A stretch of 64,000 bases of DNA from Macrostomum hystrix (Eukaryota > Animalia > Platyhelminthes), in assembly GCA_950097015.1 (NCBI GenBank), contig CATNEN010000001.1:930001-994000 (forward strand), given 5' to 3'. The position numbers and the translations under genes were made by a program. Of this stretch, positions 5,626 to 52,289 are shown in pieces. How positions within the stretch are numbered: position 1 is the stretch's first letter; each line of letters begins with the position of its first letter. The notes below the pieces were generated by a model, which did not search any database, was not told the DNA's origin, and saw only the letters and a program-made list of their open reading frames with translations.

Positions 5626-7015
5626 TCACACAGGCCCATCAGGAGACACTCCGACGTTCGTTGGCCCGATGTTCTGCACGACCGTGCAGTTATTGAAGAC
5701 GAACGTGTGTCCGCCGCATCGCGAATCACTTGCCACCTCCGGGACCACCTTGCCGTCGACCACCAGGCTTGACGTCTTGATCAGATTCATCGATGTCCGC
5801 TTGTACGCGCGCACGCCTTCTACGCTGCGGTGTCCCGTGCGCTCCATGATAATCTGCTCGTCCACTCCGGCTTGGTACAGGCGCGTCGCACATGTTGCCC
5901 TCAGGCTGTGGTTGGTCAGCTTGGGGACGCCAGAGTCGGTGGTTATGTCGGCCATCATCTTGCACAATTGGTTCTTGCCAATCGGTCTGGATGTGAACCA
6001 CACCGTGTTGCTCTCCCAGTTCTTAGCTGGCTGCAGGTAGAACCTCTACACACCTGATGGTCGCACCTTCAGAAACTTCTTGAACGCTGTCAGGTGGCAG
6101 ATGCGGTTGCCTAGATGGGACGTAGATGGGACGTATACCCGGTCCACTAGTTTGTGCCGTTTGTCATTGAGGCCACCTTGATTGGTCTTTGACGTTGCCT
6201 CCTTGTAAACAAGGCACTCTTCATTCTCGCGCACTGCAACCTGCAGCTGCGTCAGTAGCATACCCGCGTGCTCCACACCGCCACGCAGGGCAAAATGAAG
6301 TCCGTTGAGGAAGAAGAGTGTCTTCGTCAACCGGACGGGATCGTCCACGCCGAGAACTCCGGACTGCCAGATCTTCTCCTCGTCGGACACGCAGAGGATT
6401 CCAGCAGGCTTAGCGTTGAGAGACGAACCAGCTGCGGTTGACAATTTCATGGCCGCGTCCAGGGAGTCTCTGAATGGCCGCAGCTCCGCAGACTTGAACA
6501 GATCAACAGTCGGATTGGCCTCGCGAATGACCGCCTGAAGTCCAGCGGCGATTGACACGAGTGAACCGCCAGGATATCGGTCGCCATTCACTTTTCGCAC
6601 CTCATGGATGAAACGGCCCAGCGTCGTATCATCTCCTCGATGGTGAACTCCGTGATGGGCTTCACGGCGACGGTGCTACCACGCGCATTTATCCACTCTT
6701 GGAAGGTTCGCAGGGCCCACTTGTTGCGATTGACAGTGCCCCTCGGACGAACAGATTGGTTTAACACCCCAATTTCGCCGACTACAGCGAATCGCCTGCC
6801 ATCCGCCTCGCCGTTGTTCACCGCTCCGTCCGTGCCTTCCAGTTCTCTCAGCGCGCCTTCGATTGGCTCTACTCCTTCTAGATTTTCAAGCTCCAATTCT
6901 CGCTGTTCATTCATCGCAGCGGCCAGCCATTGATGTTCACGCATATCGCGATCAGGGTGTGACTCTACGGACGCTACGAACGCGGCTGGCAACACATTCG
7001 GGTCAAAGTTACCAA
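5626..7015 (-). pseudogene. Crypton-type tyrosine recombinase (DUF3504 / ZMYM-KCTD1-QRICH1-related), one frameshift and one in-frame stop
   Basis: Motifs EVRKVNGDRYP..SL, GLHFALRGG.EH, SKTNQGGL, RFYLQP, WF...PIGKN, TNHSLRAT, RTGHRS and AYKR give the R-K-HxxR-H-Y set. In-frame TAG at 6046-6048 separates two same-frame ORFs; frameshift near 6630. Confidence 0.88.
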
Positions 7016-7019
7016 CATA

Positions 7020-7760
7020 ATATGTATATGTTAAGGTATTTTCGCGAAAATACTGCTATGCTATTAAACAAAGGTAGTTGTCGGTATTTTTGCAAAAGTT
7101 ATTAAAGTAGGTTATATGCGTGGCTATATGTTAAGGTATTTTCGCGAAAATACTGCTATGCTATTAAACAAAGGTAGTTGGCGGTATTTTTGCAAAAGTT
7201 CTTGAAGTTGTGTGCGTGACTATATCTTAAGGTATTTTCGCGAAAATACTGCTATGCTATTAAACGCAGGTAGTAAAGGTAGTTTGTGGTATTTTTGCAA
7301 AAGTTATTAAAGTAGTGTGCATGGCTACATCTTAAGGTATTTTCGCGAAAATACTGCTATGCTATTAAACAAAGGTAGTTGGCGGTATTTTTGCATAAGT
7401 TATTAAATTAGGTTATATGCGTGGCTATATCTTAAGGTATTTTCGCGAAAATACTGCTATGCTATTAAACAAAGGTAGTTGGCGGTATTTTTGCAAAAGT
7501 TATTAAATTAGGTTATATGCGTGGCTATATGTTAAGGTATTTTCGCGAAAATACTGCTATGCTATTAAACAAAGGTAGTTGGCGGTATTTTTGCAAAAGT
7601 TCTTGAAGTTGTGTGCGTGGCTATATCTTAAGGTATTTTCGCGAAAATACATGCATATTATTAGACTAAGTATCTTGTACATTTTTAACCATAGACATAT
7701 TTAGTATTTCTGAAAATTGCCAAGAGTCATGAGTGCATTTTTTTCGCGAAAAGACTATAT
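7020..7760. repeat. Palindrome array 1: 7 units of about 100 bp, each with GTATTTTCGCGAAAATAC and TTTTGCAAAA
   Basis: Palindrome cores at about 7036, 7136, 7232, 7338, 7437, 7537 and 7633; spacer sequences are nearly identical. Confidence 0.95.
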
Positions 7761-8094
7761 ATTATCTATATATTGTATTGAATACCTGTGAATGAAAAAT
7801 AATGACAGTTTTTTTTGCAAAAATACTAACGATACGATGATGAACATATTTTTGCGAAAGAACATGTTCTAAAACAAATACAAACTGCGAAATTGCTTTG
7901 AGTACTAACATACAAACAATAATGCTTAACATAGTGCTGATGATTGTTGGTGATGGTATTTTCGCGAAAAGATTAGTGTATTTTCAATCATTTACAACAC
8001 AACACATATGTAGATATCAAATAGTATTGATAATCAGAAGCTTTATAAAATCACTGTAATTTATCATAGTGAATGTATTTTTTATAATATCATT

Positions 8095-8868
8095 TCAAAC
8101 TTGTGCCTCCTCAATTGCAATCGCTACTGCTGCTGACGCTTCCGCCTCTTCAGCTGCGGCATACAATAGGCAGTCGTCAGCTGGGTCAAATGTACAGCTA
8201 CTGGCTGTCATCGCTGCTGCTGACGCCTCTGCCTCTTCAGCTGCGGCATACAATAGGCAGTCGTCAGCTGGATCAAATAAACAGCTACTGGCTGCCATCG
8301 CTGCCGCTGCTGCTGACGCCTCTGCCTCTTCAGCTGCGGCATACAATAGGCAGTCGTCAGCTGGGTCAAATAAGCAGCTACTGGCTGCCATCGCTGCCGC
8401 TGCTGCTGACGCCTCTGCCTCTTCAGCTGCGGCATACAATAGGCAGTCGTCAGCTGGGTCAAATAAGCAGCTACTGGCTGCCATCGCTGCCGCTGCTGCT
8501 GACGCCTCCGCCTCTTCAGCTGCGGCATACAAAAGCTCGTCATCAGCTGGGTCAAATAAGCAGCTACTGGCTGCCATCGCTGCCGCTGCTGCTGACGCCT
8601 CCGCCTCTTCAGCTGCGGCATATAAAAGCTCGTCGTCAGCTGAGTCTAAGCAATTGGCTGCCATCGCCGCTTCGACCTCTTCAGCTACGGCGTATAACAA
8701 ATGGTCGTCTGCCAGGCCGAATACAAAACTGTATGTTGAATTGTATGTTTCATCATACCCGTAGTCATCATAGCCTGGCTCTTCATTCAGCTCAACGTCA
8801 TCGTCGTGACAGTTTGATGTCTCCGCATCGTTTAGAGTTGGCGCTGATGATGATGGTGATGCAGGCAT
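8095..8868 (-). CDS. Element gene 1: acidic Ala-rich protein with 7 tandem DDxLLYAAAEEAE motifs (93-bp unit)
   Basis: ATG-initiated 257-aa ORF; homolog at 45030-45839 keeps the start, the frame and the motif count, with only in-frame indels. Confidence 0.7.
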   Translation of the reverse strand: MPASPSSSAPTLNDAETSNCHDDDVELNEEPGYDDYGYDETYNSTYSFVFGLADDHLLYAVAEEVEAAMAANCLDSADDELLYAAAEEAEASAAAAAMAASSCLFDPADDELLYAAAEEAEASAAAAAMAASSCLFDPADDCLLYAAAEEAEASAAAAAMAASSCLFDPADDCLLYAAAEEAEASAAAAAMAASSCLFDPADDCLLYAAAEEAEASAAAMTASSCTFDPADDCLLYAAAEEAEASAAVAIAIEEAQV

Positions 8869-9105
8869 GGCGAGACAATGGGGGTAGTATTTAAAATGCT
8901 TAACTTGTTTAATTTACTTAATTAATTGTCCAAAGTTTAAACTGCATTGACTGCAGCATATTCTTAATAACATAAGATTATTAGCAAGCTGGTTACCATA
9001 GACTAGCGATCGGGTTTTTTAGTTATTTTCTTTACTAAGGTAAGTGGCGTAACTTATTTACACATTTTAGATTATTAATTATTGTTTCAAATAAAAAACT
9101 ACAAC

Positions 9106-9564
9106 ATGTCATCCCTGGGTGGGTGGCACAATGGCGGAGATCGAGATCGAGATATCGACAGAGAGGATCACAACTCTGGCAACGACAAACCGATCTCGTG
9201 CCCTACCGTCAGTAGCAGCACGGATGTCGTGATTGGCACTGAGCGGCGTCGACGAAGGCACAGTTCGGATAGTAGTTCAGACTCCGATTTTGCTATTCTG
9301 CCTTCACGTCAACGTGTTCAGTACGTATTGCATCGTCCAGGTGTCGTGCGCATTTACAATAAGAGATTTGGAATTGTGAACGCCAATCCGACACGTGATT
9401 TAGCCGGCCAATTGCAACTGCCGCAGCATGCGCAAGTGACCGATATACAGTCACCAATTATAAGCAGCAGCAGCAGCAACAGTAACAATGGCGGCACTGG
9501 CACTGAAAGAGAGCGCGGCGATGCCAATCGTGCTGCAAATAACCCAGATTTGAATGACATGTAG
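9106..9564 (+). CDS. Element gene 2: small protein with RRRRRH basic patch, unknown function
   Basis: ATG at 9106, divergent from gene 1; homologs at about 46070-46560 and 60146-60234. Confidence 0.5.
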   Translation: MSSLGGWHNGGDRDRDIDREDHNSGNDKPISCPTVSSSTDVVIGTERRRRRHSSDSSSDSDFAILPSRQRVQYVLHRPGVVRIYNKRFGIVNANPTRDLAGQLQLPQHAQVTDIQSPIISSSSSNSNNGGTGTERERGDANRAANNPDLNDM

Positions 9565-10089
9565 CAATTGTTTTGTTAAGCACTGTGTTAAGCACTGTTT
9601 CCATTGCTTATAATGAAATTAATTAACTGATTAATATAATTAGAAGTTTCATGTATTTGATTCATACATCAGAGTATTTAAAGTCGACAGTTCATGATGC
9701 CTGCAAATGTTTTAAAGTACTTTTATATACACTAGCTCTCGTTCACCTTCACGTGGTATATTCAAAGCATAAGAGTTTGCCGTCACTATTGACAATATAT
9801 TGTCGCGTTTACCATTAATCATAATCAGACGACTGATGAGATCAGTCAGTAATAAAATATTAATACGCGAACACAGATGTGTGCAGGTAGTCAACCGGTA
9901 ATTATTAATACGGTTTTTATTAAATTTCACCAATACATATAGAGTATAAATATATATAGAATTTCATTGGTTGAACAAATAATCGTGCCATTCTACAATT
10001 AGTCTGATTTGCAAAGTCGCGAGAGAAAAAATAAACGTGTAAACTATAATACATAAAATTCTGCATATAAATTCTGTATTTTACAGCAT

Positions 10090-10470
10090 TCATTGTTCGA
10101 TGTACCCGTAGCGAACTCCATGTACGATGAGCTGGAGTTCAGCTTGGGCGTCCTCAAAAAGCTCTAGCACTTCGATGATGTCTTGTGCTTCATCCTCTCT
10201 TATACCAGTCACGAACAAGACAGCCATATAGTCTTCTGCTGACCGGTGCTGTTGCAGCCATTGTTGAGTGCGCCGTAATAATAAGCATAACTCATTAGCG
10301 CTATACTCAGCATTTGGAACACCGCGCTGCAAACTAGGTAGCTGCTCGAAGCACCCTCGATGCGCTATGAACCGGCCAATGCAATCTATGCGACAGCTGA
10401 GAAAGAGTTGAAATATGTGCGGGTGAAGATACATTTGCACTAACTGCATCTGATGGGCAATGAATGACAT
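10090..10470 (-). CDS. Element gene 3: small predicted alpha-helical protein (this copy has a short C-terminal deletion)
   Basis: Close copies at 47042-47414 and 60630-61064; diverged paralog at 25608-26027 shares RG..EQL..LQR..P.AE, WL.QH, HG..Y and the IEQ* end. Confidence 0.7.
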   Translation of the reverse strand: MSFIAHQMQLVQMYLHPHIFQLFLSCRIDCIGRFIAHRGCFEQLPSLQRGVPNAEYSANELCLLLRRTQQWLQQHRSAEDYMAVLFVTGIREDEAQDIIEVLELFEDAQAELQLIVHGVRYGYIEQ

Positions 10471-10718
10471 GTTCAGTCAGTTAGTAAATCAAGCCAGCAT
10501 AAAGCTAAAAAAATAGTTAATTTAAAAATATTTTAAACTTTAATCAAAGCCCACATAGAGTATATTTTTTCGAACACAGATGAGTCAGTCCACAGACAAA
10601 TCCAATGAATACAGGCCAGCCAGGGTATTAAGAACAATAAATTTTTTATCGGCCAAGAAATCAGCCCACAACCAAACTTCGCAAGCAAAGCAGCAACAAC
10701 AGCACAACAACAGCAGCT

Positions 10719-11101
10719 ATGTCTACTTTCCCATTATTCCCGGCGGCGTTCCGGCACTACGTACTGGCGTCAGCCGCCGCCGAGTTAGAAGACGCAATGA
10801 GATCAACCATGGAGGTGGCAATGGAGGTAGCGGCGGCGGAAGCCTGGACGCCGGAACGGCGCCGGGCTGAAGAAAATATGACAGCCGCTATACGGCGGGT
10901 CCGGGCGGCCATGTTACGCATGGCCCGGGCCCGTCGTATAGCGGCAGGGCTGGATCCATATGTGAGTAGTAGATTTTGATTCCTTTCATTTGAATATTTA
11001 TGAACACATCTGCATTGTAACATCTAAGCTACTAAAGGAAACCTAACAAAATAAATGAAACCTAAAACCCATCTTTCATCCCGCAGCCGGGTGTCCTATG
11101 A
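10719..11101 (+). CDS. Element gene 4: about 85-aa helical Ala/Arg-rich protein, 2 exons (10719-10961, 11087-11101)
   Basis: Phase-0 donor TAT|GTGAGT and acceptor CGCAG|CCGGGTGTCCTATGA (PGVL*); the same intron position is kept in copies at 47.7-48.0 and 61.4-61.7 kb. Confidence 0.65.
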
Positions 11102-12858: not shown

Positions 12859-14352
12859 TCAATTGCCGCACAGACATTGTCGCGTCTTGATCAATCGGCC
12901 GTGTCTTGACACTGTCGTAGTCAATATATTGTGTGTGCATATACAATACGAGCGTCTAGATGCATGCAAAGCATCAGTCGCAGGTATAGTCGATTGCGAT
13001 GACTGCACATCACTTATTGACATTGCGACATCGTCGTCAAGGTCGGCGGTCAGAACCAATTCTGCTGCGGCATCGGCATCTCCTTGCGGCACTGTCACAT
13101 CAGATAGCTGTTCATCAGAATCGTTGTTGACATCAGCAATGATGATCTCCATTGCGACATCAAACATGTCATCGATGTGACTTGCTTCGGAATGGGCAGC
13201 GAAATCCGATCCAGCAGCAGCAGCAACACAATCCGTATTGGTGGACAGAAATTGCATAGCGGCAGGTTGCATCAAGTCGAGCAGAATCTGCGCCATTTCA
13301 ATGTCATCACCGTGACCGGATGATGTACCAATACACACTGACTGCGTGCTGACATTGGCTTCGATGGAAACATCGGTCACACCGTTTTGTGCACTGACAC
13401 CAACTGTCGCTGTTGTTACTCTTGGCGCACAGACAGGAATAAAAACAGGTAGCGGCACCGGAACGAAATACGGCACCTCGACAGTTGGAATCGGCAACAT
13501 AGGCATCGCTGGTGATCCGATTGGCTCAATTTGCAACATTGGCATTGATGGCGATGGTACTGGCGAGTGATCCGATTGGATTGTTTCTGCTGCTGCTTCA
13601 ATCGCATTGTGATTAAGCGGAGTAGATGTACAAATTGGATGCCGTACTGATCCAATTGACACGCTGTCCGCTTGGCTCACATGTTCAGCAGGCTCGTCAG
13701 TACTTGTTGCATAGATGATGCCTGATTCAGCTGCGCTATCTTCTATGATGATAGTTTCTGCTGGCTGCTCTGCTGCTGACTGCTCTGCTGATGGCTGCTC
13801 TGCTGCTGGCTGCTCTGCTGCTGGCTGCTCTGCTACTGGCTGCTCTGCTACTGGCTGCTCTGCTGCTGGCTGCTCTGCTGCTGGCAGTCGACGGGCAATG
13901 TAGCGCTCGTGCATATAGTCGACAATCTCGCCGACCACAGCTGGTAGTGGATCCAGTTGTTCAAGCTGGACCACTTCGCCCATTGCCGCTGCTCCCGCCA
14001 CTGCCACTGGCTGAGCTGGTTGGCCACCGACGCGACGCTGCGGATTCCGCTTACATCTATATAGATGATGCAACATGTTGGACGTTATTTTGTTGCAATG
14101 CGAACACGCTAGCACACGTCCACCGGCAGCGACATCCACACCAGCCCGCTGTAGTTGCAGCATCTTCCAGACGGCACTTCCACGCTCCTTAACCGACGCG
14201 AATAGCGATGGCCTTTGACCAACAGGTAGGACTGTCCAGTCAAATTCGGCATGGACAGCTTTATGCGCCTCTATAAAATGTCTTCGCATCATATTGGCGC
14301 GGATTTGCTGGCCGCAGAAATGGCAGAAGCGGAGTCCGTTGTTGTCTTCCAT
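12859..14352 (-). CDS. Element gene 5: N-terminal double zinc finger (C2H2 plus C2HC) followed by a long acidic, disordered region with (AEQPA)n and a PV-rich motif
   Basis: 497-aa ATG ORF; CHFC-x11-H-x4-H and CSHC...H...CKRNP; VPYFVPVPLPVFIPV; near-identical copy at 23419-24708. Confidence 0.8.
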   Translation of the reverse strand: MEDNNGLRFCHFCGQQIRANMMRRHFIEAHKAVHAEFDWTVLPVGQRPSLFASVKERGSAVWKMLQLQRAGVDVAAGGRVLACSHCNKITSNMLHHLYRCKRNPQRRVGGQPAQPVAVAGAAAMGEVVQLEQLDPLPAVVGEIVDYMHERYIARRLPAAEQPAAEQPVAEQPVAEQPAAEQPAAEQPSAEQSAAEQPAETIIIEDSAAESGIIYATSTDEPAEHVSQADSVSIGSVRHPICTSTPLNHNAIEAAAETIQSDHSPVPSPSMPMLQIEPIGSPAMPMLPIPTVEVPYFVPVPLPVFIPVCAPRVTTATVGVSAQNGVTDVSIEANVSTQSVCIGTSSGHGDDIEMAQILLDLMQPAAMQFLSTNTDCVAAAAGSDFAAHSEASHIDDMFDVAMEIIIADVNNDSDEQLSDVTVPQGDADAAAELVLTADLDDDVAMSISDVQSSQSTIPATDALHASRRSYCICTHNILTTTVSRHGRLIKTRQCLCGN

Positions 14353-14539: not shown

Positions 14540-15145
14540 TAGTATTTTCGCGAAAATACTGATATGCTCTATAAACAAAGGTAAGGGCAGTATTTTTGCA
14601 AAAGTTCTTAAAGTAGTATGCATGATTACATCTTTGGTATTTTCGCGAAAATACTGCTATGCTATTAAACAAAGGTAGTTGGCGGTATTTTTGCGAAAAT
14701 TCTTAATGTAGTGTGCATGGCTACATATTAAGGTATTTTCGCGAAAATACTGCTATGCTATTAAACAAAGGTAGTTGGCGGTATTTTTGCAAAAGTTCTT
14801 AAAGTAGTGTGCATGGCTACATCTTAAGGTATTTTCGCGAAAAGACTGCTATCCTATTAAACGCAGGTAGTAAAGGTAGTTTGCGGTATTTTTGCAAAAG
14901 TTATTAAAGTAGTGTGCATGGCTACATCTTAAGGTATTTTCGCGAAAAGACTGCTATGCTATTAAACAAAGGTAGTTGGCGGTATTTTTGCAAAAGTTCT
15001 TAAAGTAGTGTGCATGATTACATCTTTAGTATTTTCGCGAAAATACTGCTATGCTATTAAACAAAGGTAGTTGGCGGTATTTTTGCAAAAGTTATTAAAG
15101 TAAGTAGTGTGCATGGCTGCATATTATGGTATTTTCGCGAATTTA
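14540..15145. repeat. Palindrome array 2 (about 7 units of 96-105 bp)
   Basis: Same unit as array 1; lies between the 5' end of gene 5 and the 3' end of the recombinase gene. Confidence 0.95.
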
Positions 15146-15542: not shown

Positions 15543-18500
15543 TCAGATGTCCAGTCTAGTTCTCGAACTGATCAGGCGCCCAGATCGCGTCCTGTATTCC
15601 GTTCGACGAACCATGAGTAGCTCAGAATCCGAGCTGGTCTCATTGTCATTGCTGACGTGCTGTTGTTCACCATCATCACCTTCTTCGTCGATATCGTCGT
15701 GAACGTTGCCTTGTCCAGCCGATGCTCCAAACATCGGCGGTTGACTAAGACTGCGTCGTCTAGACGATGTAGACGAAATAGGCGATGGTGTTGCTGAATC
15801 GATGGCCGGCTTTGTCGACTCGGTGTTGTCCGTTGTTGAACATCTAGGACTAACCGTAGCGGGTCGCATTGTCGACATTCGAGGTCGCTTCTTGTCAGTG
15901 GCCTTGCAAATGGACGACCGTCGAACGCGTCGCTTGCGTGTGCGTTGACTATGTGGCATCACAATGTCATCAGCAGGTAGAGGAGATGCAGCCGATGAAT
16001 TGGTTGCGTCCAGATCAACGCTACAGGCGGCAGAGCGACGACGCTTCGTGTCGTTTTCGGCTGTTGGATGTCGTTGATGTCGACGATCAAGTGGCCGATT
16101 GTGACAGAATGTCTCGAAGCATCCTCTGACGTCGTCGGCGACCATCAGATTGGCCTGCTGTTTGGCCAGGCGTCCATACGCATTCACGACACAGTTGCGC
16201 GATGTGTCGTACAGAGGCACCAGCTGGTCTAGCTTGTCGGGATGCGCGTGCACATAGGCCGACAGTACATTTCGACGACCATCGCCCATGCGATAGGGCC
16301 GATCGATGACCAACTCGGCGCCCTGCTTGACAAGCGTGCTGAAACTTGTCGAGTCACGCTGCTTGCCACGATGCGTAGGAAACAGCAGACATTTGCCTGG
16401 CCTGACATGGATGTTGCACTCGGCGAAGTATGGCAATAGAAAGTTGTCTATCCATTGCAGTAGACATTCGCCGACTTTGCGTGGCGCAGTCCAGCTTGCA
16501 CCTTTACCACAACCGTCCTTTTTGTGTGCCACTTCGGTAGGCGGCAGGACTGTGACAATGGTGGAGGACGTTGATACGCCGCTATTGAGTGCAGCATCCA
16601 AATAGCAACGCCGAATCGCGACCCATGGACGTAGTCGATTGGCATGGACAATTGCTGCACAGAAGAAGGCCAGTTCACGCGTGATCGGCATAATAAATGT
16701 ATTCCATTTGCCGACGACGTTGGCCATTCGACGTGCACATTGTCCAATGCGACCCCAGTAGCCCTTCACGGGTAGATGAGACCACGAATGTTTGGCGACC
16801 ATATCAATCAGGCAGTCTAGCCGGTTGTGAATGATGCGCCATTCGTCAGCGGTCAGGAACTTATCCGTGTAGGACAGCTGGCGTTCGTCATCGCGCAGGT
16901 GATAGATATTCTCTTGCCGCTGACGAATCAATCCAATGCAAGCCTGTACATGTTAAAGGGTTATGAAAGAGAAAGTACATGCAGTAGCTTCTACAATTGT
17001 TCGTGATATATCAACTAACATAGTATACAATATGCGACACAACAACACTGCTCACCATGATTGATTCGATGCGGCTAGTCAACAGACCAGATACTGCAGT
17101 CTGATGATAGAGAATACCATCTTTGAGCGGGTCAGGACAGGCAGGCAATTCTGACGCGGCCTTGACAATGTCGGCATGCACGTTGGCAAACAATCCATCT
17201 GGTGGCGAGGTCAATTGGAACGCGTTCATAACACTAGGAGCACCGAAGTCGTTGTTGGCTGCTAGAAACTTCTTCGCGCCGCTCAATATGTTATGAAGCT
17301 CGTTCATTCGCTGTCCAACAGTCGATGGTTTCCAGATATGGCGCTTCACCATCTCGTCCAAATCGAATTGGATGCGCCCTGGATTGATGAACCACATCTC
17401 GACTGTGACATTGATTGCGTGTAGGAGACGACTAGTTGTAGCATGATAGTTCCGCTGGATTGCTTTCCTACGACTAACATGCGATGCGTTCTCTTCTACA
17501 CAGCAATGACCCTTGAACCAGATGTCGCCGACATTGTCTAGTTGCTTGTACATGTGTTCAGATGCAACGTGGTAGTCTGGGCCGTCGAAAACAACAAGCC
17601 GAGACTTCTTGTGCCTCCGTTGCAATACAAGCTCCTCTTCACTGACAGAATCATCAGTATTTTCCACGTCAGATTTAGAGGTCTGAGTCTCTGCTTGTCG
17701 CTGACTGACAGCATTGGTGACTCCGACCGGAACATAGTCTGACGTATACTGGAGAATTGCTTCTGTCAGATTGACCAGATTCTGCAAGCTAGTACACACG
17801 CGCGGATGCTCAGCGTTGTGGGCTTTCTGCAGAATCTCGTTGAGGCCGGCCGCATTCAGACGCAGTCCATTGATAAACTCTGTTTGACAGGAAAGTTATA
17901 AATATTTGTTGATTATTTTTTTGTCTTTATGTGTAAATTTAAAAATGTAAAGGCATGTACAACAATATTTTAGACCACTTACTGATCGCTGCCACATTGT
18001 CGTTGGCATTATCGAATTCTGGCATCGTACTCGTTTCGTTTTGCAGTCGCTCGATGTCGTGACTGACAATATCGGCCGTGTAAGATGGTCCGGCACGATC
18101 GAAACTAGCCAACACCGGTGCTACTAAAGTAGACGGTGTGACAGACGATGCACTGCTGATAATGCGTACAGCATTGGACTGTCCAGCAGAAGACGATCCC
18201 GCAGAAGACGCTAACACGACAATAGGCGGCTCAATGTTTGCACCCGCGTCTATCGAATCAGACGAAGAGTCGTCGCTGTCACTTGACGAACGGGTTGCAT
18301 TTGCTGCCTCTGTAATTGCCGGTTTACGCTTGCATGTCCTGGCAATGTGTTTACTGAGATGCTGAACACCTTTGCCACAGTATTGACAATAAGACAAAGA
18401 TGCATCGGATCCATCCCGACGTAACCGGATGATCTTCAATACGGTCTTTGCCTTGACGTCATACGATGCAGTCGCTGCGGGTCGTTGAACCTCCGGGATC

Positions 18501-18604
18501 GTGCTCCAATCGAAAGCCGAGACGAAGTCTGAATGATTTGTAAGAAAGTGCCTTACAACATTCGTCTTCCAAAATGAAGCTTTGCAGACTGGGCACGTAT
18601 CCAT
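15543..18604 (-). CDS. Element gene 6: zinc-finger plus divergent tyrosine recombinase, 3 exons (18604-17983, 17879-17056, 16943-15543), about 948 aa
   Basis: Donors GTAAGT and GTGAG and acceptors AACAG and TACAG join three ORFs in frame (phase 1, then phase 0). YR-like order: WKPSTV core-binding-like helix, NRLRP (R), AHK (K), LLFPTHRG, GDGRR, YDTS, NAY (Y). Confidence 0.75.
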
Positions 18605-19192
18605 TTCGCTGGTTAATATTTAATTTAGCTGTTCCAAAGTGCTTATGACAGAAGAACGTTTACACAGATTTGTAAGCGAGCGCGCTCGGCTTCTGACTTA
18701 AGCTGCTATCGTGACCCGTACGACAGTTTAATCACATAAACTATCATTCAAGGTTGGTCTATGGCGAAAAAGCATAATATCGAACTCATAATATATTTAA
18801 CGTTGCTATATTGTCTACTCATAGTAGAGTAGGTAGTTTCGAACAGAAAATGAACATAAACACGAATAATTATTTGATTTCTGAATGTCTATATGTTGAA
18901 AAGGCACTTAAATTATTGTTGATTATTCCAGAGGTATTTTCGCGAAAGTACATATATATTCTCAAACAAAGGTTAATGCAGTCTTTTTGCGAAAATACTT
19001 TTGTGTTAATATGATTACTCTTTCTAGTGGTATTTTCGCGAAAAGACATATGTGTCCCATATAAAAGTAAAGGCATAATCAAAAGAAGGTAAATGCCGTA
19101 AACGTTAATAATAATGGGGGTTCACAAAAAGTAGTTTGGTAGTAATTAGTAGTAAATTACTAGCATATTTTTTTAAATAGAGAAAAATGCGT

Positions 19193-19262
19193 AGTGCCGA
19201 CTGGGATTCGAACCCGAGCCACTGCTACTAAAAAGGAATGCTTTAGACCTGCATGCCAGATC
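19193..19262 (-). pseudogene. tRNA-derived sequence (tRNA pseudogene or SINE head)
   Basis: Minus strand has a degenerate A-box TGGCATGCAGG and a perfect T-arm/B-box CTCGGGTTCGAATCCCAG; the anticodon arm is not well formed. Confidence 0.5.
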
Positions 19263-21134
19263 ACTTGCAATTGAAATGTGTGTTATCTTGTTATTTATAT
19301 TGATTTTCTTTCGGATGTTGGATTTTTAATGATTTTTGTCTGCAAATAGTGGAATCTTGATCACGTTTTCAATATTTTCTAACAGAACAATAAGATTTAT
19401 TGAGAGAATATAGATAGTACTGCTGATTATTACTACTATTGTTAGTATTTTCGCGAAATACGGATACGTATTTAATGCTCACACCATCTACCATCTGTCA
19501 GTGTCTCCTCTGGTTCTGGTTCTGTTCCTTTATGCCGGTGCCAAGTCTATACCAGTGGCGGTAATAATGCCCTGTTAAGCATTAAAACTTCTGTCTTTAG
19601 TCAGTAGTCTGCAGCGTTTTGTGCAATTATTATTATTCATAATCTTCATAAACATGATAAAATTGCACGTATTGTTCAACCGTTTTCCTACAATTGATAA
19701 TCAGATTACTTAATTCCTGTTTACGTGTTGACATTCTCATCTTAAATTAACAACAATTCGTTTAAAATCACTGCCTAGCTTATGTCGAAAACTTTCTCTA
19801 AAAATATACAAATTTCAAAGGCGCTGAATGCCGCCATATGCAAAAGTAATTCTGACTGCCTGCCTATATTCTGCAGTTCAGTATGCTTTAAAATGTTAAA
19901 AATTCAAAACAGTTAATAAAAATTGGCCTTTTCTCTTCGTTTGTACATTTTTACTATTGCTTTTTTAAGCAAAATATACTACTTTTACTCAATGAGGGCT
20001 AATGCCCTCAAAAATAAATAAGAAAAAAAATAAGAAAAATGACGGAGAACTCGGAGAACTTAAAAAATGTAAATGAAAAATGACAAATAAATTATTATAC
20101 GCTTGTGCCAAGATAAAGAAAGTTAAGTTTATACGAAGTTGCTCATGTAAAAAACATTAATAAAAACGGATTAGTTTTGAAAAAGTAAAGTACAAACGAC
20201 AAAAAATTATTACACACTTTCGTATCGCTATAAGATATTCCAAGATGCACTATTAAAACGTGCAGACTATAGGTATGTAGTGCATTAAATTGTGTGTATT
20301 TTAACATAGACATATCTGCTTGGTACAGCTCGATTTTTCGCGATTTTTTTATTCGTATCCACATTTTTTCTTTCGAAAATACGGTCAGACGTTGTTGGCC
20401 ATAGACACAAAAACGACTGCATATAATTCATATTGTATGCAGTATTTTTGCAAAAGTTCTTTAAGTAGCGTGGCTATACCTATGGTATTTTCGCGAATAT
20501 AGCCAGACATTTCATCTATAATTAGTATTTGCGCACTGCCAAACGAAACGAAAACAAGTTGACTACTTGAGATCTGTGCATAATGTGGCAGTGGTAAAAA
20601 GGTAAGAAGGCTCTTATGGAAGACAGCATCGTCACACCGGACTGCTATACAGTATAGCAGTATACAGTATACACTAGCATTTGTAGTGTAGTGAGTGGGA
20701 GTTACTGTGACATGGTTCACATACTGCGACATGTCACATAATGGTTAATATCAATTTGCAATTTAACGTTGTACATCGCATAGCTGCTCGTGCCAATGTT
20801 AGATTGACGTTGTACGTCTGGTTAAATTCGCGCATTTTGCGCAACGCAAAATACAGCAGTACTTTGCATAGACGTACAATGTCAATCTAACATTGCCCAT
20901 GCAAGTCTCAACCTCATGAGTGTTTCCTGGTATGTCCTCATTCTCCCACTGTCTTTCGACTATCTTTTGTATTTTTAAATGTTTCATACAGTTTTTGTAT
21001 GCCAATTTTATAAAAACGACTGCGACCAAGTGACTGTCCTTTCAAGCGCAGCTACAGTACATGTCAAATTAGCATTAATAAATAAATAATAAATATAAAT
21101 AATTTAGTGTTTGTTATTTGTATAATCATTAATA

Positions 21135-22820
21135 TTGGTTTTGACAATCAATATGAGAAGATGGACAATCAAAATGAAGACAGCCATAGATCTGAATGCA
21201 GCAGCTCAGCACAGCTTCGCAGCAGCTGCGGCTTAGGCCATAGACTTTTGACGATCGAAATGAGAATTGGACAATCAAACTGGCAACGGGAGCAGTATGC
21301 ATGTTTATTTGAACGAAAATTTAACATTAAAATGTATAAATTTAAAAAAGTTAAAATTTAACAATAGAAACGAGAAATCAACAACAGAAATGGCAACACA
21401 GCCTCTAACAGTCAGAAAAAAGATGGAAACACAGCAGTCCAGCAGCATGGGTTCAAAACTCATGCCCAGCAAGGCAGCGTCCAAGCTGACGGAAGCAGCG
21501 CGATTCCCACGCAGCTGCCTTATCCGGAGTCACGGCTTCAGGCAGTGACTCACGCGCCACTCTCTCCAGCAGCATGTAACGCCACTCTTCCTGGTTCACG
21601 CCTTCTGGGGCAACTGCCTCTTCATCAACGATGTCAGGCTGCGCCAGTCTGCTTTTGATCTTTGCCTTGAGGCAACTGTTGGCGAATTCCGAAGGGTTCA
21701 GAAAAGGTAAATATCCCGGAAGAATGCGGATGGACACAGCGTACTGCAGATGTTGCGGAATGCGCGCTGCTCGATGGAAATGCGGACCGTCCATCACGAC
21801 AAGCCACGAAGCCGCAGCATCAAGACGGTGGCATTCCTCGCTCAGTTCGTCGATGAAGATCTGAAATCTGGCGTTCGTCTGGCCTCCTCGGAACACCGAC
21901 GAATGCACGAGGCCAAACTCAGCGGCTATCGCCATGCAAACAGTCACATTTGGTCCGCGCTGCGTTGTGACCCTTCGCCTGACCTCTTCACCTTTTAGGC
22001 TGCGACCCTGCGATCTTCTGGTCCACAAATTGAATCCCGTTTCATCAAGAAACACCAACCGTACTGCAGGGGTCCAAGTTCAGCACGAACTCTGCGTACT
22101 CTCGCCGAGCCTCAATGTTCTCCTGGCTGTTCGTTCTCGAGCGCACATCCGTGCCCTTGGTGGCCAGCTTAACTGTGTACATCAGTCCCTGTAGAATTCT
22201 GTCCACAGTTCTGTACGAGATGTCCAGTTTGTCGGGGAAATGGTTGTTGACCCGCTGTGCCATCTCGCTCAGGGTGAGGAACGGGTTGCGGTTCACCTCT
22301 GCTTCCAGAAATTCACGAATCTTCTCATCCACCTTGCACCTTGCTTCTTTTCGGCCTCCACGAGGCATAACGTCCATCCTTCCCTCATTCCTGTACAGCC
22401 TCACGATGCGATGAGCAGTTGAACTTGACAGCTGAAGGATTATTGCTGCGTCCTTGACCGGTGTGCCTCGATTCATTGCCTCGATGAGCCGACGTCGGTC
22501 AACTGGACTCACAGGTGGTGCTATCACCAGCAAACTGGAGAGATGGCTGGCAGAATGAATCTTTTGCTCAAAGCCTTACATGCGGTTTCCACTGGCATTA
22601 AAAGGGAAAAGTGAAGTCCATTCTATTCTTTCCTTCATGGTGCTGTCTCGCTACACTAACCAAGCGTTGCCATTTTGATTGTCCAATTCTCATTTCGATC
22701 GTCAAAAAAGTCTATGGCCTAAGCCGCAGCTGCTGCGAAGCTGAGCTGAGCTGCTGCATGCAGATCTATGGCTCTCTTCATTTTGATTGTCCATTTTCTC
22801 ATATTGATTGTCAAAACCAA
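21135..22820 (-). mobile_element. IS630/Tc1/mariner DNA transposon with about 155-bp TIRs and TA target-site duplication
   Basis: TIRs at 21135-21288 and 22664-22820; TA on both flanks; the empty site TTAA-TA-GTACACAAC is present in the paralogous copy near 12397-12410. Confidence 0.95.
21453..22533 (-). pseudogene. Tc1/IS630-like transposase (HTH plus DDE), one frameshift near 22060
   Basis: FLDETGFNL, VMDGPHFH and PFLNPSE motifs (D-x33-E by my count); N-terminal HTH lies in the adjacent frame. Confidence 0.9.
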
Positions 22821-27183: not shown

Positions 27184-27617
27184 TCTCCCTATGGCTACTA
27201 GGCTACTACTAACAGTAGGCATGCGTCGCGCAAAAAGACTGAATGACCTTTTTTTGATCTCCCTAGTGTATTTCTAAAAATAGAACACCATAGGTGGTCA
27301 TTTCGCGAAAATACTGACGCGCATATACGAAATGACATTTTTTGATCTCCGTAATGTATTTCTATTATTAGAACAACTAAGCTTATGTCTTTTTGCAATC
27401 GGGCACTTCGGAGCATGTAGTCATGTTTGCGAAAGTACTAATGTATATCACTTTGTCCTTCATGCACCATTTCATTGTGCTTTCGCGAATGCACCGAGTT
27501 TGCATGGACGGACTAACTTATTACCGCATATTGTATACTATGTTAGTTGATATATCATGAACAATTGTAGAAGCTACTGCATGTACTTTCTCTTTCATAA
27601 CCCTTTAACATGTACAG

Positions 27618-44066: not shown

Positions 44067-45029
44067 CCTAGCAGTAGGTATGTTGTAGGTATACAAGCTA
44101 TATTAAAAAGATCATATTTAAACCAACAATACAAATTTATACTCGTATTTACACTGAAACAAATAGCAAATTTATATTAGGTCTAGAGTAGTGTCAATGA
44201 AAAAAAGATTTAAATATCAAGCAATTCATATAGTATTAGGCAATTAGCCATTCTAAAGTCAGTATGAATTATACTGTTTATACCATTTCAGCATCTAAAA
44301 GCTACAATTTTTAGCTTGCTTTGCTTGCTATATAACTGGTAACATATAGCATAGATAATATATATGTTATATATTACTATATATACTAATATATTTCCTG
44401 TTCGCTCAGATAGCATTAGCCTAGCTACCTGCTACCATACAGATAATAGTAAGAAAAAAATATTAGCCTAGCTGAATAGACCACAATGATTAGACAGGTC
44501 AATTATATATAATAATATTAATTATATTAGCTATTACTATAAGACTAGGCCAAGTATGCGAATCTCCATGCTAAAAGTGAAAAAAAAACTAAATACACTG
44601 TGAAAATGGAGAAAAGTAGAGCCTAGAGCTAGCACAGTAAATATCAGTTAAATTACATAGCTAACCAAAGAAATACCGAGCTGTGTACAGTAAACCGAAA
44701 GACATTTGAAATCGCGCGGAATAGATATGCATTTTACATTATGATACCGTGCTACGATATCATATATCATGATATGTTAGCCAAAACTGGCCCGTTTTTG
44801 CATGGTATATACGGTCAAAAGTGTATATACGGCTGGTTCTAAAACGAATACAAAATGCTGTATTTGTGTGAAAGTACTTTGAGTACTAAAATACAAACAA
44901 GATTGTTGATGATAGTGCTGATGATTGTTGGTGATGGTATTTTCGCGAGAATATACACTAGTGTATTTTCAATCATTTACAACACAACACCAATATGTAC
45001 ATATCAAATAGTATTGATAATCAGAAGCT

Positions 45030-45839
45030 TTATAAAATTGCAATTGCAATTGCAATCGCTACTGCTGCTGACACTTCCGCCTCTTCAGCTGCGGCATACA
45101 ATAGGCAGTCGTCAGCTGGGTCAAATGTACAGCTACTGGCTGCCATCGCTGCTAATGCTGTTGACGCCTCTGCCTCTTCAGCTGCGGCATACAATAGGTC
45201 GTCGTCAGCTGGGTCAAATGTACAGCTACTGGCTGTCATCGCTGCTGCTGCTGCTGCTGCTGACGCCTCTGCCTCTTCAGCTGCGGCATACAATAGGTCG
45301 TCGTCAGCTGGGTCAAATGTACAGCTACTGGCTGTCATCGCTGCTGCTGCTGCTGCTGCTGACGCCTCCGCCTCTTCAGCTGCGGCATACAATAGGTCGT
45401 CGTCAGCTGGGTCAAATGTACAGCTACTGGCTGTCATCGCTGCTGCTGCTGCTGCTGCTGACGCCTCCGCCTCTTCAGCTGCGGCATACAATAGGTCGTC
45501 GTCAGCTGGGTCAAATAAACAGCTACTGGCTGCCATCGCTGCTGCTGCTGCTGCTGCTGCTGACGACTCTGCCTCTTCAGCTGCGGCATACAAAAGCTCG
45601 TCGTCAGCTGGGTCTAAGCAATTGACTGCCATCGCCGCTTCGACCTCTTCAGCTACGGCGTATAACATATGGTCATCTGCCAGGCCGAATACAAAACTAT
45701 ATGATGAATTGTATGTTTCATCATACCCGTAATCATTATAGCCTGGCTCTTCGTTCAGCCCAATGTTCTCGTCGTGACAGTTGGATGTTTTCGCATCGTT
45801 TAGAGTTGGCGCTGATGATGATGATCGTGTTGCAGGCAT
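45030..45839 (-). CDS. Element gene 1, second copy (7 DD[DE]LLYAAAEEAE-type motifs)
   Basis: Homologous to 8095-8868; flanking 44836-48330 is colinear with about 7866-11420. Confidence 0.7.
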   Translation of the reverse strand: MPATRSSSSAPTLNDAKTSNCHDENIGLNEEPGYNDYGYDETYNSSYSFVFGLADDHMLYAVAEEVEAAMAVNCLDPADDELLYAAAEEAESSAAAAAAAAMAASSCLFDPADDDLLYAAAEEAEASAAAAAAAMTASSCTFDPADDDLLYAAAEEAEASAAAAAAAMTASSCTFDPADDDLLYAAAEEAEASAAAAAAAMTASSCTFDPADDDLLYAAAEEAEASTALAAMAASSCTFDPADDCLLYAAAEEAEVSAAVAIAIAIAIL

Positions 45840-46069
45840 GGCGAGACAATGGGGGCAGTATTAAAAATTTTCTGCTTGTTTAATTTACTTAATTAATTGT
45901 CCAAAGTTTAAACTGCATTGATTGCAGCATATTCTTAATAGCATAAGATTATCAGCAAGCTGGTTACCATAGACTAGCAATCGTGTTTTTTAGTTATTTA
46001 CTTTACTCAGTTAAGTGGCGTAACTTATTTACACATTTTAGATGATAAATTATTGTTTCAAATAAAAAA

Positions 46070-46560
46070 CGACGTCATCCCTGGGTGGGCGGCACAATGG
46101 CGGAGATCGAGATATCGACAACTCTGGTAACGACAAACCGATCTCGTGCCCTACCGTCAGTAGCAGCACGGATGTCGTGATTGGCACTGAGCGACGTCGA
46201 CGAAGGCACAGCTCGGATAGTAGTTCAGACTCTGATTTTGCTATTCTGCCTTCACGTCAACGTGTTCAGTACGTATGGTATCGTCCAGGTGTCGTGCGCA
46301 TTTACAATCAGAGATTTTCTATTGTGAACGCCAATCCGACACGTGATTTAGCCGGCCAATTGCAACTGCCGCAGCATGCGCAAGTGACCGATATACAGTC
46401 ACCAATTATAAGTAGTAGCAGCAGCAACAGCAACAATGGCGGCACTGGCACTGAAAGAGAGCGCGGTAATGCCAATCGTGCTGCTAATAACCTAGATTTG
46501 AATGACGTTGCAATTCTTTTGTTAAGCACTGTTGCCATTAGTTATAATAAAATTAATTAA
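46070..46560 (+). pseudogene. Element gene 2 copy, start ATG changed to ACG
   Basis: Colinear with 9106-9564. Confidence 0.55.
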
Positions 46561-47041
46561 CTGATTAATATAATTAAAATTTGGTAGTTAATTAACACAT
46601 CTGAGTATTCAAAGTCGACACTTAATGATGCCTGCAAATGTTTTAAACTACTTTTGCATACACTAGCTCTCGTTCAACTTCACGTGGTATATTCAAAAGC
46701 ATAAGACAGTTTGCCGTCACTATTGACAATATATTGTCGCGTTTACCATTAATCATAATCAGATGACTGATGAGATCAGTCAGTAATAAAATATTAATAC
46801 GCGAACACAGATGTGTGCAGCTAGTCAACCGGTTATAATTAATACGGTTATTATTAATACGGTTTTTTATTAAATTTCACCAGTATATATATAGAGTATA
46901 AATTTATATAGAATTTCATTGATTGAACAAATAATCGTGCTATTCTACAATTAGTCTGATTTGCACAGTCGCGAGAGCAAAAATAAACGTGTAAACTCTA
47001 ATACATAAAATTCTGTATATAAATTCTGTATTTTACAGCAT

Positions 47042-47414
47042 TCATTGTTCGATGTACCAGTAGCGAACTCCATGAGCTGGAGTTCAGCTTGGGCGTCCTC
47101 AAGAAGCTCTAGCACTTCGATGATGTCTTGTGCTCCATCCTCTCTTATACCAGTCACGAACAAGACAGCCTTATAGTCTTCTGCTGACCGGTGCTGTTGC
47201 AGCCATTCTTGAGTGCGCCGTAATAATAAGCATAACTCATTAGCGCTATACTCAGCATTTGGAACACCGCGCTCCAAACTAGGTAGCTGCTCGAAGCACC
47301 CTCGATGCGCTATGAACCGGCAATGCAATCTATGCGACAGCTGAGAAAGAGTTGAAATACGTGCGGGTGAAGATACATTTGCGCAAACTGCATCTGATGG
47401 GCAATGAACGACAT
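47042..47414 (-). pseudogene. Element gene 3 copy with frameshifts
   Basis: Colinear with 10090-10470; small deletions near 47073 and 47320. Confidence 0.7.
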
Positions 47415-47658
47415 GTTCAGTCAGTTAGTAAATCAAGTAGAGCAAAAAATAGTTTTGTTAAAAAAAATCTAAAATTTAATCAAAGCCCCCATAGAGTATA
47501 TTTTATCGAACACAGGTGAGTCGGTCCACAGATAAATCAAATGAATACAAGGCCAGTCTGGGTATTAAGAACTAGAAATCTTTCTCGGCCAAGAAATCAG
47601 CCCACAACCAAGCACTTCGCAAGCGTGATTAACTAAGATTAACCTAGAGTGATTAACA

Positions 47659-48023
47659 ATGTCAACTTTCCCATTGTTCCCGGTTCAGTTCCGGCACTTC
47701 GTCCTGGCTTCCGCCGCCAAGAATCTCGAGAATGCGATGAAGGAGGCTTTGGAGGCGGCCATGGATGTGGCGGTGGCGGAAGCATGGACGCCGAGACGGC
47801 GCCGGGCGGATGACGACATGGCTGCAGCTATGCGGCGGGTCCGGGCGGCCATGGTCCGCATGGCCCGGGCCCGCCGCATAGCGGCAGCGCTCGATCCTTA
47901 TGTGAGTAGTAGATTTCGATTCCTTTCATTTGAATATTTTTGAACACATCTGGTAACATCTGAGCTAACAAACTAAATGAAACCTAAAACCCATCTTTCA
48001 TCCCGCAGCCGGGTGTCCTATGA
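47659..48023 (+). CDS. Element gene 4 copy, 2 exons (47659-47901, 48009-48023)
   Basis: MSTFPLFP...AEAWTP.RRRA...RMARARRIAA.LDPY|PGVL* conserved with mostly conservative substitutions. Confidence 0.65.
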
Positions 48024-48850: not shown

Positions 48851-50972
48851 GTGTTCTCATTGGAAGATGACTCAGCTAAGGACACGGACGATTTGCTAGC
48901 TGATGACGTAAAGCTGGAGATTGTGGACGAGTGGACGAGCACTACAGACAATGTAGAGTCGAATACTGCCCCTGTTTTGACGGCTTCTAATAGTTCAGAC
49001 TTGTCATCGCAGCTAGTCGATGATAAGTACAAAACAGAGGTGGCAGAATTATTGCGCGTAAATGGCGAGTCGACTATTCCTAAAAATAGTGCCGCACTTG
49101 GTGCCTGTCCGACTTTGCCAGATTATGCGCCTCGCTCTACACCGGCAATGTCTGTCATCGAGAATGTGACAACATCCGATGATGATGAACCAGCTCTCAC
49201 AGTATTTTCTCCAGCGTATGTCGACGCTTCTGAATCAACAGCGCAACAGTCGGGACGACTGCAGCAATCGCAGCAGCAGCATCAACAGCGAGATCAACAA
49301 CCGCAGCAGCGGCAACAGCAGCAGCAGCAAGTTGGTGGCGTGGCATTTGCTCCGATAGCCGATGAATATGCGTTGTGTCGTTCGACATCACCACTTCTAC
49401 GGCTATGTCCTCGAGCTCCAATTACCGACTACGCCTCTTTAACAGCAGAGGGCAGGTCGGTTCTCGCGACTAGAAGGACGCTCCATCTTATAGAGATTGC
49501 ATTTATATCTAGAGATGTGGAATCCTTCAAGGCGTTTCTAGAACATGAATTGGTAGCTCCATGTGCACAGTTTGCCATCGGCGCAACAGCAAATGTTCAC
49601 CTTGACATGCTGATCAGCGACGAAATCCGAGGACGCCGTCGGCAGAAATACAATATGTCAATGCGAGAATATCTAGGAACTCCGAATCATCCCAATGGTT
49701 TGCTGATGTTCCTGAACCTGCGCCTACCAGAAGATGGTTACACTGTTTGCTGCGGACTGCATGCCCTTTTGATGGAATCTGCGGAAGCTTCGGCCTACCT
49801 GCATCCTACAATGGGTAGAATGACAGTGTCTAGTGTACGCAGTGCGTCAAGTGCAATTAAGCTAGTTACCAGTACGGACGAGTTTCCAGCTCTTTTCCGC
49901 GTTTCTACTCAAGAGTGCAGCTTGCTGACCAAGGCCTTTTGCTGGGTTGCTGCTCATGAGACGTCATCTACTGAGCCTTTGCTAGATAGTGGCTTCATGT
50001 TCGAACACTTTCGTGTCAGACAAGAGCTCAGCGATTACTTAAAGGTGACTCAGATGAAACGCGTAATAGCAACAGAGGTGCTAGCTGGTTGCCAAAACTG
50101 TCGCCCTACTGCCGCTGCCGCCGCCGCCGCTGCTGATGGTGCTGCAACAGCCGACTATGCGAGTACGACCTTGCCTACTCAGCTGGAGGTATGCAAAATA
50201 TTATAAGACATGTCATTTTTAGCAGACGTATGAGTATTGATCATTGAAGTTTTGCTGTTGTTTTAATTTAATTCAATTATTACTTTTCGACAATTAATTA
50301 ATTGTATGCGAACCTACCTACACAACACCATCAAACAGGTCTCTGCTGCTGCAGGAATCTGCTGCTACTGCTGTTCATGTTCCTGATGCCGCCGTCGCTC
50401 GTGTTCCCCGGCTGATCGCCGCCGCTACCAACGTGTGCCCAACTGTAAAGGCTGTGTGCAGCGCGTTGCAATTGCCAACTGGTGTCGTCTATCTATACGG
50501 CCCGTCTGGCGTTGGGAAGACCCACTCTGTGCAAAGCCATATCGGTTCTACGAAAGTGCTGAATATCCATGTGCAGAAGCGGTCTAACACGTTTATGTTT
50601 GACAAGCTCTGCGAGACAATACATACTGCAATGTTTATTGACGAGCTACGCCCGCAACTGTTTGATGAGACATCTGAAGTCATGTGCACACTACTTCGTT
50701 TGGTCAATAGAGACACTTTTGAAGTCAATGCTAAATACAAGGCCATTCGACACGTCTCTTGGCTCAATCGACTGCTAGTGCTTGCTGGGCATGCTCCGGT
50801 CAGTGCGTATTCGATGGACTTTCAGCGCCGATTAGAACCGACACCTGATGGGCACAAGCGTCCGGTAGTTGCCATCTTCATTGGTAATTCTCTCCGTACT
50901 GACTACCAATGTGATGGACAATGCCACCCAATACGCAATGTTTTTGGCGATCACCCGGACGTGCAAATATGA
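48851..50972 (+). CDS. Element gene 7: Rep/NS1-like protein with C-terminal SF3 helicase, exons about 48851-50188 and 50355-50972 (true start uncertain)
   Basis: Phase-0 GAG|GTATGC ... TGCAG|GAA joins both ORFs in frame. Walker A GPSGVGKT, Walker B MFIDE, motif B' FEVNAKYK, motif C-like LVLAGH, Arg finger FQRR. Upstream VHLDMLI and SAIKLVTSTDEFP resemble decayed HUH motifs II and III. Confidence 0.75.
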
Positions 50973-51289: not shown

Positions 51290-51580
51290 CATAAAAATAC
51301 AAACAATAATGCTGTAACATAGTACGTCGTTGATTATTGTTGATGATTGTATTTTCGCGAAAAGACTACTGTATTTTCAATCATTTACAACACAACACCA
51401 ATATGTATATCAAATAGTTATGATAATCAGTAGCTTTATATAATAACTGCATAATGAATCATATAGTGATTGTATTATTTTACATATATAATCTGTATTT
51501 TAAATTCTGACGTATGACGCCTCTGTCTCTTCAGCTGCGGCATACAGAAGCTCGTCGTCAACTGCATGGGTCTATGCAAT
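51290..51580 (-). pseudogene. Third, fragmentary copy of the gene 1 3' end and downstream flank
   Basis: Matches about 7905-8180, including GACGCCTCTG.CTCTTCAGCTGCGGCATAC. Confidence 0.75.
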
Positions 51581-52289
51581 TTCTATATATAGTGTGACGA
51601 TGTCATTTATTTTGTAGTCGTATTTTGTCGTTATATTTATAGTTTCTATGTGAGTTGCATCTTTGTATTTCTAGTAAAGTATATTAATGTATAATTTCTC
51701 CTATTTATCTATATTAAGTCTATAATAGTACATATATTATTCATTATTAATGCAGCATTGAGAGTCCGTCTATCATATACTATATTCCATATATCTGCGC
51801 GCCGTGTTTAAAATCTGAATCGCTGCGTATTTCACGCCTCGGCTTGGCCGGTTACCAGTGGTGTTGGGCGCATAGTGGGCACTAGAGCTTAATTAAGACC
51901 TTTCTACTAAGACAAGACAATCTAAATAAACTCGCAGGTTAGGACCGACATTTTAATAAATAACTAGACAGTCCATCTCCGCTACACCAATCTAACGTCA
52001 TAAGAAGCTGTTAATAATTTTTGTTAAGCAGACTACTAAATACAATAGTCCATATTCGGAGTCCTCGAGTGTTACAATAGTAATACGCATTCAATCGAAT
52101 GTATATCCAAAGTGTCAAAGTATTGATGAATACTATTCATGAAGGTATTTTCAGAAAAAAATATAACGTATTCTAAATGGAAAGTAAATTTAATATTTCT
52201 GCGAAAAGATTGATATGTTCTTAAACGAAGGTAACGGCAGTATTTTTGCAAAACTTCTTGAAGTACAAACGACTAATAAATTATTATTA

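Follow-up and report, generated by a model that had tools for sequence, protein, structure and literature searches.

Gene 1 of the Macrostomum hystrix stretch analysed here (64,000 nucleotides, hereafter the window) is a minus-strand open reading frame of 257 aa (8095..8868) whose seven acidic motifs resemble the RPA70N-binding motif of ETAA1. We put at about 0.5 the probability that it encodes a multivalent RPA70N decoy, a protein whose main function would be RPA70N binding. The preliminary description had proposed a multivalent recruiter or sponge for RPA; of the two, we favour the decoy and find a recruiter less likely, because no DNA-binding or catalytic part can be recognised in the predicted protein, which has almost no basic residues (0 K/R in copy A and 2 in copy B).

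Architecture of gene 1 and its copies

A second copy of gene 1 (copy B, 269 aa) lies at 45030..45839 on the minus strand; both copies were placed by ORF and motif positions, and each carries seven motifs, as had been noticed earlier at 8.1 and 45 kb. In both, the motifs follow an N-terminal leader of ~50 aa that is acidic and Tyr-rich. A remnant with one motif and no N-terminal part is found at about 51515..51581, also on the minus strand. Tandem Repeats Finder (TRF) detected the arrays as units of 93 bp in copy A and 99 bp in copy B.

In copy A, the divergent motif 1 occupies 8671..8709 and motifs 2–7 occupy 8599–8637, 8506–8544, 8413–8451, 8320–8358, 8227–8265, and 8140–8178 (all minus strand). 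Successive motifs are spaced by 24, 31, 31, 31, 31, and 29 aa in copy A and by 24, 34, 33, 33, 33, and 31 aa in copy B, which differs from copy A in its longer Ala linkers and its C-terminal tail. When 11 of the 14 units are aligned, A-D-D, L-Y-A, A-E-E, and the final E are invariant, and in four of the seven copy-A motifs the third acidic site is taken by Cys. The consensus given at the outset describes the array except for repeat 1, which carries H in the variable position, V in place of Ala twice, and, in copy B, M for L. Likewise, Ala linkers separate the motifs in general (motifs 2–7 of copy A are joined through them), with none preceding repeat 1. Acidic residues make up 57 of the 257 positions of copy A, aromatics are spaced along it, and basic NLS-like residues are absent from the protein.

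Comparison with known RPA70N-binding motifs

As described in PMC10479964, the ETAA1 motif binds RPA70N with a KD of about 3.9 uM; D606 and D607 contact RPA70N residues R31, R43, and R91, and W600, L609, L610, Y611, and A613 pack into the RPA70N groove. The form of this motif given in the preliminary description agrees with PDB 8jzv_B and with these contacts. Gene 1 resembles ETAA1 RPA-binding motif 1 (599–622, PDB 8JZV) in its D-D-x-L-L-Y-x-A core and trailing acidic residues, all in register, so that six of the seven named contacts are kept in the repeat. The six core residues (D606, D607, L609, L610, Y611, and A613) are present in 12 of the 14 motifs, among them motifs 2–7 of copy A, and in the remnant; the repeat-1 motifs keep five of them in copy A and four in copy B. 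The exception is W600, whose equivalent is mostly absent: a Phe stands there in repeat 1 only, and repeats 3–7 have Cys, with a Phe two places later.

The same spacing, D-D-x-x-hydrophobic pair, is found in PrimPol RBM-A, with D518, D519, F522, and L523 (PMC5457501); further RBM-like motifs are presented in Supplementary Fig. 7 of that paper and may bear on how frequent the pattern is. Because different RPA70N motifs are described as having little sequence in common (PMC10479964), identity to one of them is neither required for binding nor proof of it.

We quantified how readily such a motif arises. When the residues of the 31-aa unit were shuffled 2,000,000 times, strict DDxLLYxA appeared in 63 cases; shuffling the bases of the 93-nt unit and reading all six frames gave it once in 200,000, and it did not occur in 672,556 residues from unrelated loci. 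These nulls concern one motif picked post hoc, and its seven copies are not independent. In viral contigs, the motif pattern occurred in 24 stretches, nine with the L-L form, always singly and never in tandem. A copy-B repeat compared with 177,635 PDB sequences had the ETAA1 peptide 8jzv_B as its sole match, at a non-significant E of 0.38. ETAA1 was not returned from the PDB at E ≤ 10 by three single copy-A repeats or by an 11-row profile; two of these four queries gave no match and two gave a TSC22-family chain (1dip_A). The whole gene 1 protein returned only three chance matches from the PDB. Ubiquitin-binding motifs were also considered and dismissed on inspection by eye, since neither the conserved Ser of the UIM nor the Ala/Leu order of the MIU fits.

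The TSC22 matches raise a different reading, in which gene 1 is a mimic or derivative of the TSC22 box, or else a beta-hairpin repeat, and is unrelated to RPA. Repeat 1 indeed fits TSC22 better than ETAA1, having 9 of 11 residues in common with the 1dip_A stretch and matching Pfam TSC22 at E 0.0025, below the Pfam cutoff, in 2 of 11 rows. Proteins of the TSC22/DIP/bun family have a TSC box followed by a leucine zipper; in gene 1, the 11-residue match is confined to repeat 1 of each copy and no zipper follows, and the TSC22 stretch itself is missing the invariant DD, so we rejected membership of this family. The beta-hairpin version draws on the unnamed protein P0003, the single match to gene 1 among 1.84 billion representatives (29% identity over 185 aa), which was rejected as a homologue since it does not have the acidic pair and aligns through its Ala/Pro composition. 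We consider this reading, in either version, very improbable. The match of repeat 1 to an unrelated TSC22 box does imply that short matches of such strength arise by chance.

Evidence for and against coding by gene 1

An open frame alone cannot fix the strand of gene 1, since array A is open in three of the six frames, two of them on the plus strand, and one plus-strand frame is open across array B. Nor do the whole-codon changes in linker length, which are real, say anything on the matter, because the linker consists of GCA/CAG triplets and would slip in threes in any case. Both features would suit an untranslated, stop-free minisatellite of 93–99-bp units, in which the ETAA1 likeness is a chance pick among many repeats and motifs, and the TSC22 match shows that chance matches occur.

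The database searches also lean towards a minisatellite. No homologue of gene 1 was found at E ≤ 0.01 among 5.8 billion proteins (7,993 scored candidates of 141–450 aa), an exact match was not found, no relatives occurred on viral contigs, and the one match among the 1.84 billion representatives was the spurious P0003. Matches in the Atlas reached at most 0.78, with a low recognition score of 782. When the two copies were compared pairwise over codons 7–92, 7 synonymous and 12 non-synonymous differences gave a pN/pS of 0.47, which is not significant (p 0.096), and divergence between the gene 1 copies (19/258 bases) is about that of the flanks (17/227 and 14/183).

The pattern of variation within the motifs points the other way. 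Across the 45 motif bases, the 15 copies together hold 23 distinct alleles that arose by substitution, of which 12 are synonymous in the minus frame against an expected share of 0.23–0.30 (p 0.002, 0.008, and 0.024 at kappa 1, 2, and 4), with the qualifications that homogenisation of the array leaves its alleles non-independent and that the test at kappa 4 fails six-frame correction. The other five frames have no synonymous excess (p ≥ 0.17). Constraint appears concentrated at the codons for the six ETAA1 contacts, where 7/9 alleles are synonymous (p 0.0006–0.008) and the remaining two, both in repeat 1, are conservative (L to M and A to V); in the nine other motif codons, 5 of 14 alleles are synonymous (Fisher p 0.06 for the contrast). 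These alleles suggest purifying selection in the minus frame, which the pairwise comparison of copies A and B alone does not establish.

Three further observations argue against a minisatellite, a reading that we regard as unlikely. The ATG context and an open, non-repetitive leader of 50 codons are kept in copies A and B; the spacing change that lies outside the linkers (24 vs 31–34 aa) is in frame too; and two further genes of the element that are present in duplicate have pN/pS values of 0.26 (p 0.028) and 0.20 (p 0.005), so that the element family has experienced coding selection. Two small module genes gave 0.66 and 0.46 and did not reach significance. Taken from the sequence, gene 1 is likely protein-coding.

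Predicted complex with RPA70N

Modelling with the RPA1 N-terminal OB fold, as suggested in the preliminary description, was carried out with stand-ins for the host RPA1, namely N-terminal domains from metagenome contigs, three of which were confirmed as Pfam Rep-A_N. In three runs, the complex of gene 1 residues 99–130 with one such domain (L062, Pfam Rep-A_N E 7e-31) reached a score of 0.40, against 0.02 for the best of three controls, a weak pass by the predictor's own grading. The runs agree in at least 80% of contacts, with a pLDDT of 62 for the partner. In calibration, 51 of 78 solved pairs and 2 of 108 mismatched pairs attained the pass mark, but scores ≤ 0.60 included just 5 of the 78 solved pairs and all four passing mismatches (of 180). 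Peptides lie outside this calibration, and the prediction made no use of our alignment and came with no interface output. Because a like complex has already been solved (8JZV), the pass may reflect memory or likeness only.

The controls were unrelated proteins and not other acidic-helix receptors, which leaves room for a more general interpretation: gene 1 may encode generic acidic amphipathic helices, activation-domain-like or mimicking ssDNA, that engage some other basic-cleft partner (PC4, a coactivator, or a different OB fold) and bind RPA only incidentally. The high acidic content and spaced aromatics of the protein are in keeping with it, and the synonymous excess does not identify a partner. 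There is also precedent for such overlap, as p53 TAD2 binds the OB folds of both RPA and BRCA2, and the activation domains of VP16 and GAL4 are cited as binding RPA (PMC3561959). On the other hand, the constrained codons coincide with the contacts named from the ETAA1 structure, and gene 1 has no DNA-binding domain to direct an activation domain. On balance, we hold a generic helix to be possible though rather doubtful.

A modular element surrounds gene 1

Gene 1 opens a repeated four-ORF module of ~3.2 kb. Module A (7866..11101) contains gene 1 and small ORFs at 9082–9564 (+), 10090–10470 (−), and from 10719 (+); module B (44836..48023) is its second copy, 86.5% identical, and a partial third copy lies at 60.1–61.7 kb. 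A diverged direct copy of the left end of module B (51294..51581; 82% identity over 157 bp) is found ~6.4 kb downstream, so that direct repeats bound a ~6.4-kb unit enclosing gene 1 copy B and a helicase gene. The ORF at 10090–10470 belongs to a family of small helical ORFs with four members, the others at 25608–26027 (−), ~47045–47414 (−), and ~60700–61064 (−); one paralogue has 41% identity, a frameshift disrupts the copy at 47 kb and an internal stop the copy at 61 kb, and the four gave no family match. About 1 kb to the left of module B, a satellite of 47-bp units (43081–43889) is strongly purine-rich (GC skew 0.47, AT skew 0.50).

The helicase gene, 3 kb from copy B, is a predicted spliced gene of 651 aa on the plus strand (48851..50972; exons 48851–50188 and 50355–50972). 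An SF3 helicase domain is indicated by its second exon, which can be aligned with a CRESS-type Rep (L123, 25% identity) at Walker A, Walker B, and segments like B' and an arginine finger, and by a Pfam RNA_helicase match in the helicase exon at E 9e-4, just under the Pfam cutoff. Of 461 candidates, only Macrostomum lignano PAA62424 proved related to the helicase exon (44%, E 7.5e-31); its N-terminus also shows a weak match (E 0.013) to the end of exon 1, in agreement with the predicted splice. Taken alone, this one relative would suggest a Macrostomum-like host. The N-terminal part of the gene contains one H-x-D and one Y-x-K ~145 aa apart, and an HUH endonuclease domain finds no support in Pfam, PHROG, NCBIfam, or the Atlas. 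AlphaFold2 single-sequence models were unusable (pLDDT 30.5 for the N-terminal part and 35.8 for the SF3 exon). The acidic N-terminus (48851–48930, +) includes a D-D-L-L stretch loosely like RPA70N motifs.

The suggestion that gene 1 belongs to a Rep/SF3 replicon therefore stands in part: an SF3-like helicase exon is present, beside copy B only, and the Rep side is without database support for the HUH domain. Compared with CRESS-DNA virus Rep, which it resembles in the four helicase segments, the neighbouring gene differs in its predicted intron, in a long unrelated N-terminus without demonstrable HUH, and in motif C, and no capsid gene was recognised by family match among the ORFs scanned.

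Copy A has no adjoining helicase gene, and module A is followed instead by Cys/His-rich genes and a predicted gene of 948 aa. The first is an acidic, Cys/His-rich ORF, zinc-finger-like by eye (12859..14352, minus strand; second copy at 23419–24708), tied to module A through its position and common palindromes; acidic-hydrophobic patches similar to those of the helicase N-terminus occur near its C-terminus. The predicted 948-aa gene has three exons on the minus strand (15543..18604) and a Cys/His N-terminus as in 12859–14352 (31% identity). Its C-terminal region looks tyrosine-recombinase-like by eye only, with no Pfam or NCBIfam match to that region and no homologue of the exon. The last exon of this gene is duplicated in inverted orientation at 27525–29087 (pN/pS 0.20), and a second recombinase-like gene, again by eye and without Pfam or NCBIfam support, lies in fragments at 29713–30537 (−).

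Palindromes recur through the same region. Just downstream of gene 1, an array of ~100-bp units carries an 18-bp perfect palindrome (7025..7650); further arrays lie at 14542–15141, 24905–25308, and about 26350–26570, and single palindromes near 7956, 11797, 18934–19445, 20485, 27297, 44937, 48444–48689, 51349, and 62374–62900, with single copies sitting at module edges. The units measure 96–100 bp and also carry a second, related, imperfect palindrome. The 10-base palindrome core occurs 60 times on the two strands combined, where 0.21 occurrences would be expected, and the 18-bp palindrome is absent from viral contigs. We take these arrays to be reminiscent of baculovirus hr origins/enhancers, E2F-type sites, or recombinase sites.

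Several other genes are interspersed. A gene in pieces with DUF3504 and phage-integrase domains, presumably Crypton-like, abuts the palindrome array at 7025 (5626–6995, −). A Tc1/IS630-type DDE transposon (DDE_3) with inverted ends of ~160 bp is inserted between element modules (21130–22825). A bHLH ORF (888–1343, +; Pfam HLH E 9e-8, Hes-like by eye) is followed by unclassified ORFs at 1787–2852 (−), and retrotransposon-like ORFs are visible by eye in the window. Judging by the Tc1/DDE_3, DUF3504-integrase, and bHLH matches, the window is eukaryotic. An Rfam scan gave 0 matches. Modular in build, the element could not be assigned to any described family, and we found no precedent in open-licence papers for a Macrostomum element with an SF3 helicase and a recombinase. 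Of the papers listed for Macrostomum endogenous viral elements, none concerned the present element, judging by title and start of abstract.

Proposed mechanism

If gene 1 is an RPA70N decoy, each motif would fold as a short amphipathic helix inside the RPA70N basic cleft, so that the protein would plug this cleft on RPA-coated ssDNA. Seven weak sites would give avidity only where RPA trimers are clustered. The protein would then compete with ATRIP, ETAA1, RAD9, MRE11, BLM/RMI1, and similar partners and deliver no enzyme; we favour competition over enzyme delivery because gene 1 has no other domain. RPA would remain on the ssDNA made by the helicase of the element, recruitment of checkpoint and repair factors would be dampened, and an element whose helicase makes ssDNA would benefit. 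These steps reach beyond the sequence match and are inferred. In a less likely variant, the N-terminal 50 aa would bridge RPA to an element protein.

More tentatively, and with less confidence than in the decoy itself, the window may hold a previously undescribed, modular, intron-containing, virus-like family of flatworm elements in which a seven-valent RPA70N mimic silences the ATR checkpoint on the element's own ssDNA intermediates. Such an element would combine the SF3 helicase, recombinase-like, and zinc-finger genes with palindrome arrays acting as origins or recombination sites, and gene 1 would be the anti-checkpoint protein of a selfish element, arisen by tandem amplification of an ETAA1-like motif.

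Relation to known RPA binders and implications

RPA70N motifs, their multivalent use, and viral RPA binders are already known. PrimPol (RBM-A and RBM-B) and the BLM-RMI1 (BTR) complex have several RPA70N motifs per protein or complex, which are proposed to engage several RPA trimers (PMC5457501, PMC7838300), and avidity toward RPA clustered on ssDNA has been put forward for the three-motif BTR complex (PMC7838300) and for multivalent partners generally (PMC10479964). The putative motifs of gene 1 share this multiplicity and differ in arrangement: PrimPol and BTR carry two or three divergent motifs on an enzyme, whereas seven near-identical motifs make up nearly the whole gene 1 protein. ETAA1 is a host gene with one such motif; gene 1 has seven in tandem, is carried by a repeated element, and has no recognised ATR-activation domain or RPA32C motif.

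Viral proteins that bind RPA include the VP16 activation domain (PMC3561959) and geminivirus Rep, which binds RPA32 (PMC1807949). In these, as described, the RPA-binding parts belong to a transactivator or an initiator, unlike the stand-alone tandem array of gene 1. No precedent was found in the open-licence literature for a stand-alone seven-copy RPA70N-motif array in a mobile element, and the open-licence papers found on viral RPA70N mimicry, RPA70 sequestration, or transposon RPA-binding motifs offered none of relevance among the matches listed, the viral ones being judged by title.

RPA70N is described as the hub for recruiting ATR activators and repair helicases to ssDNA, and multi-motif avidity has been proposed to let cells tell stalled from normal forks (PMC7838300, PMC10479964). 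The surrounding element, almost without database relatives apart from one M. lignano protein, merits a description of its own. If the decoy reading is true, a natural protein made entirely of motifs would offer a direct test of the avidity model and gene 1 would be a ready, genetically encoded RPA70N blocker, and a mobile element of this flatworm would be mimicking the motif to manage the checkpoint of its host.
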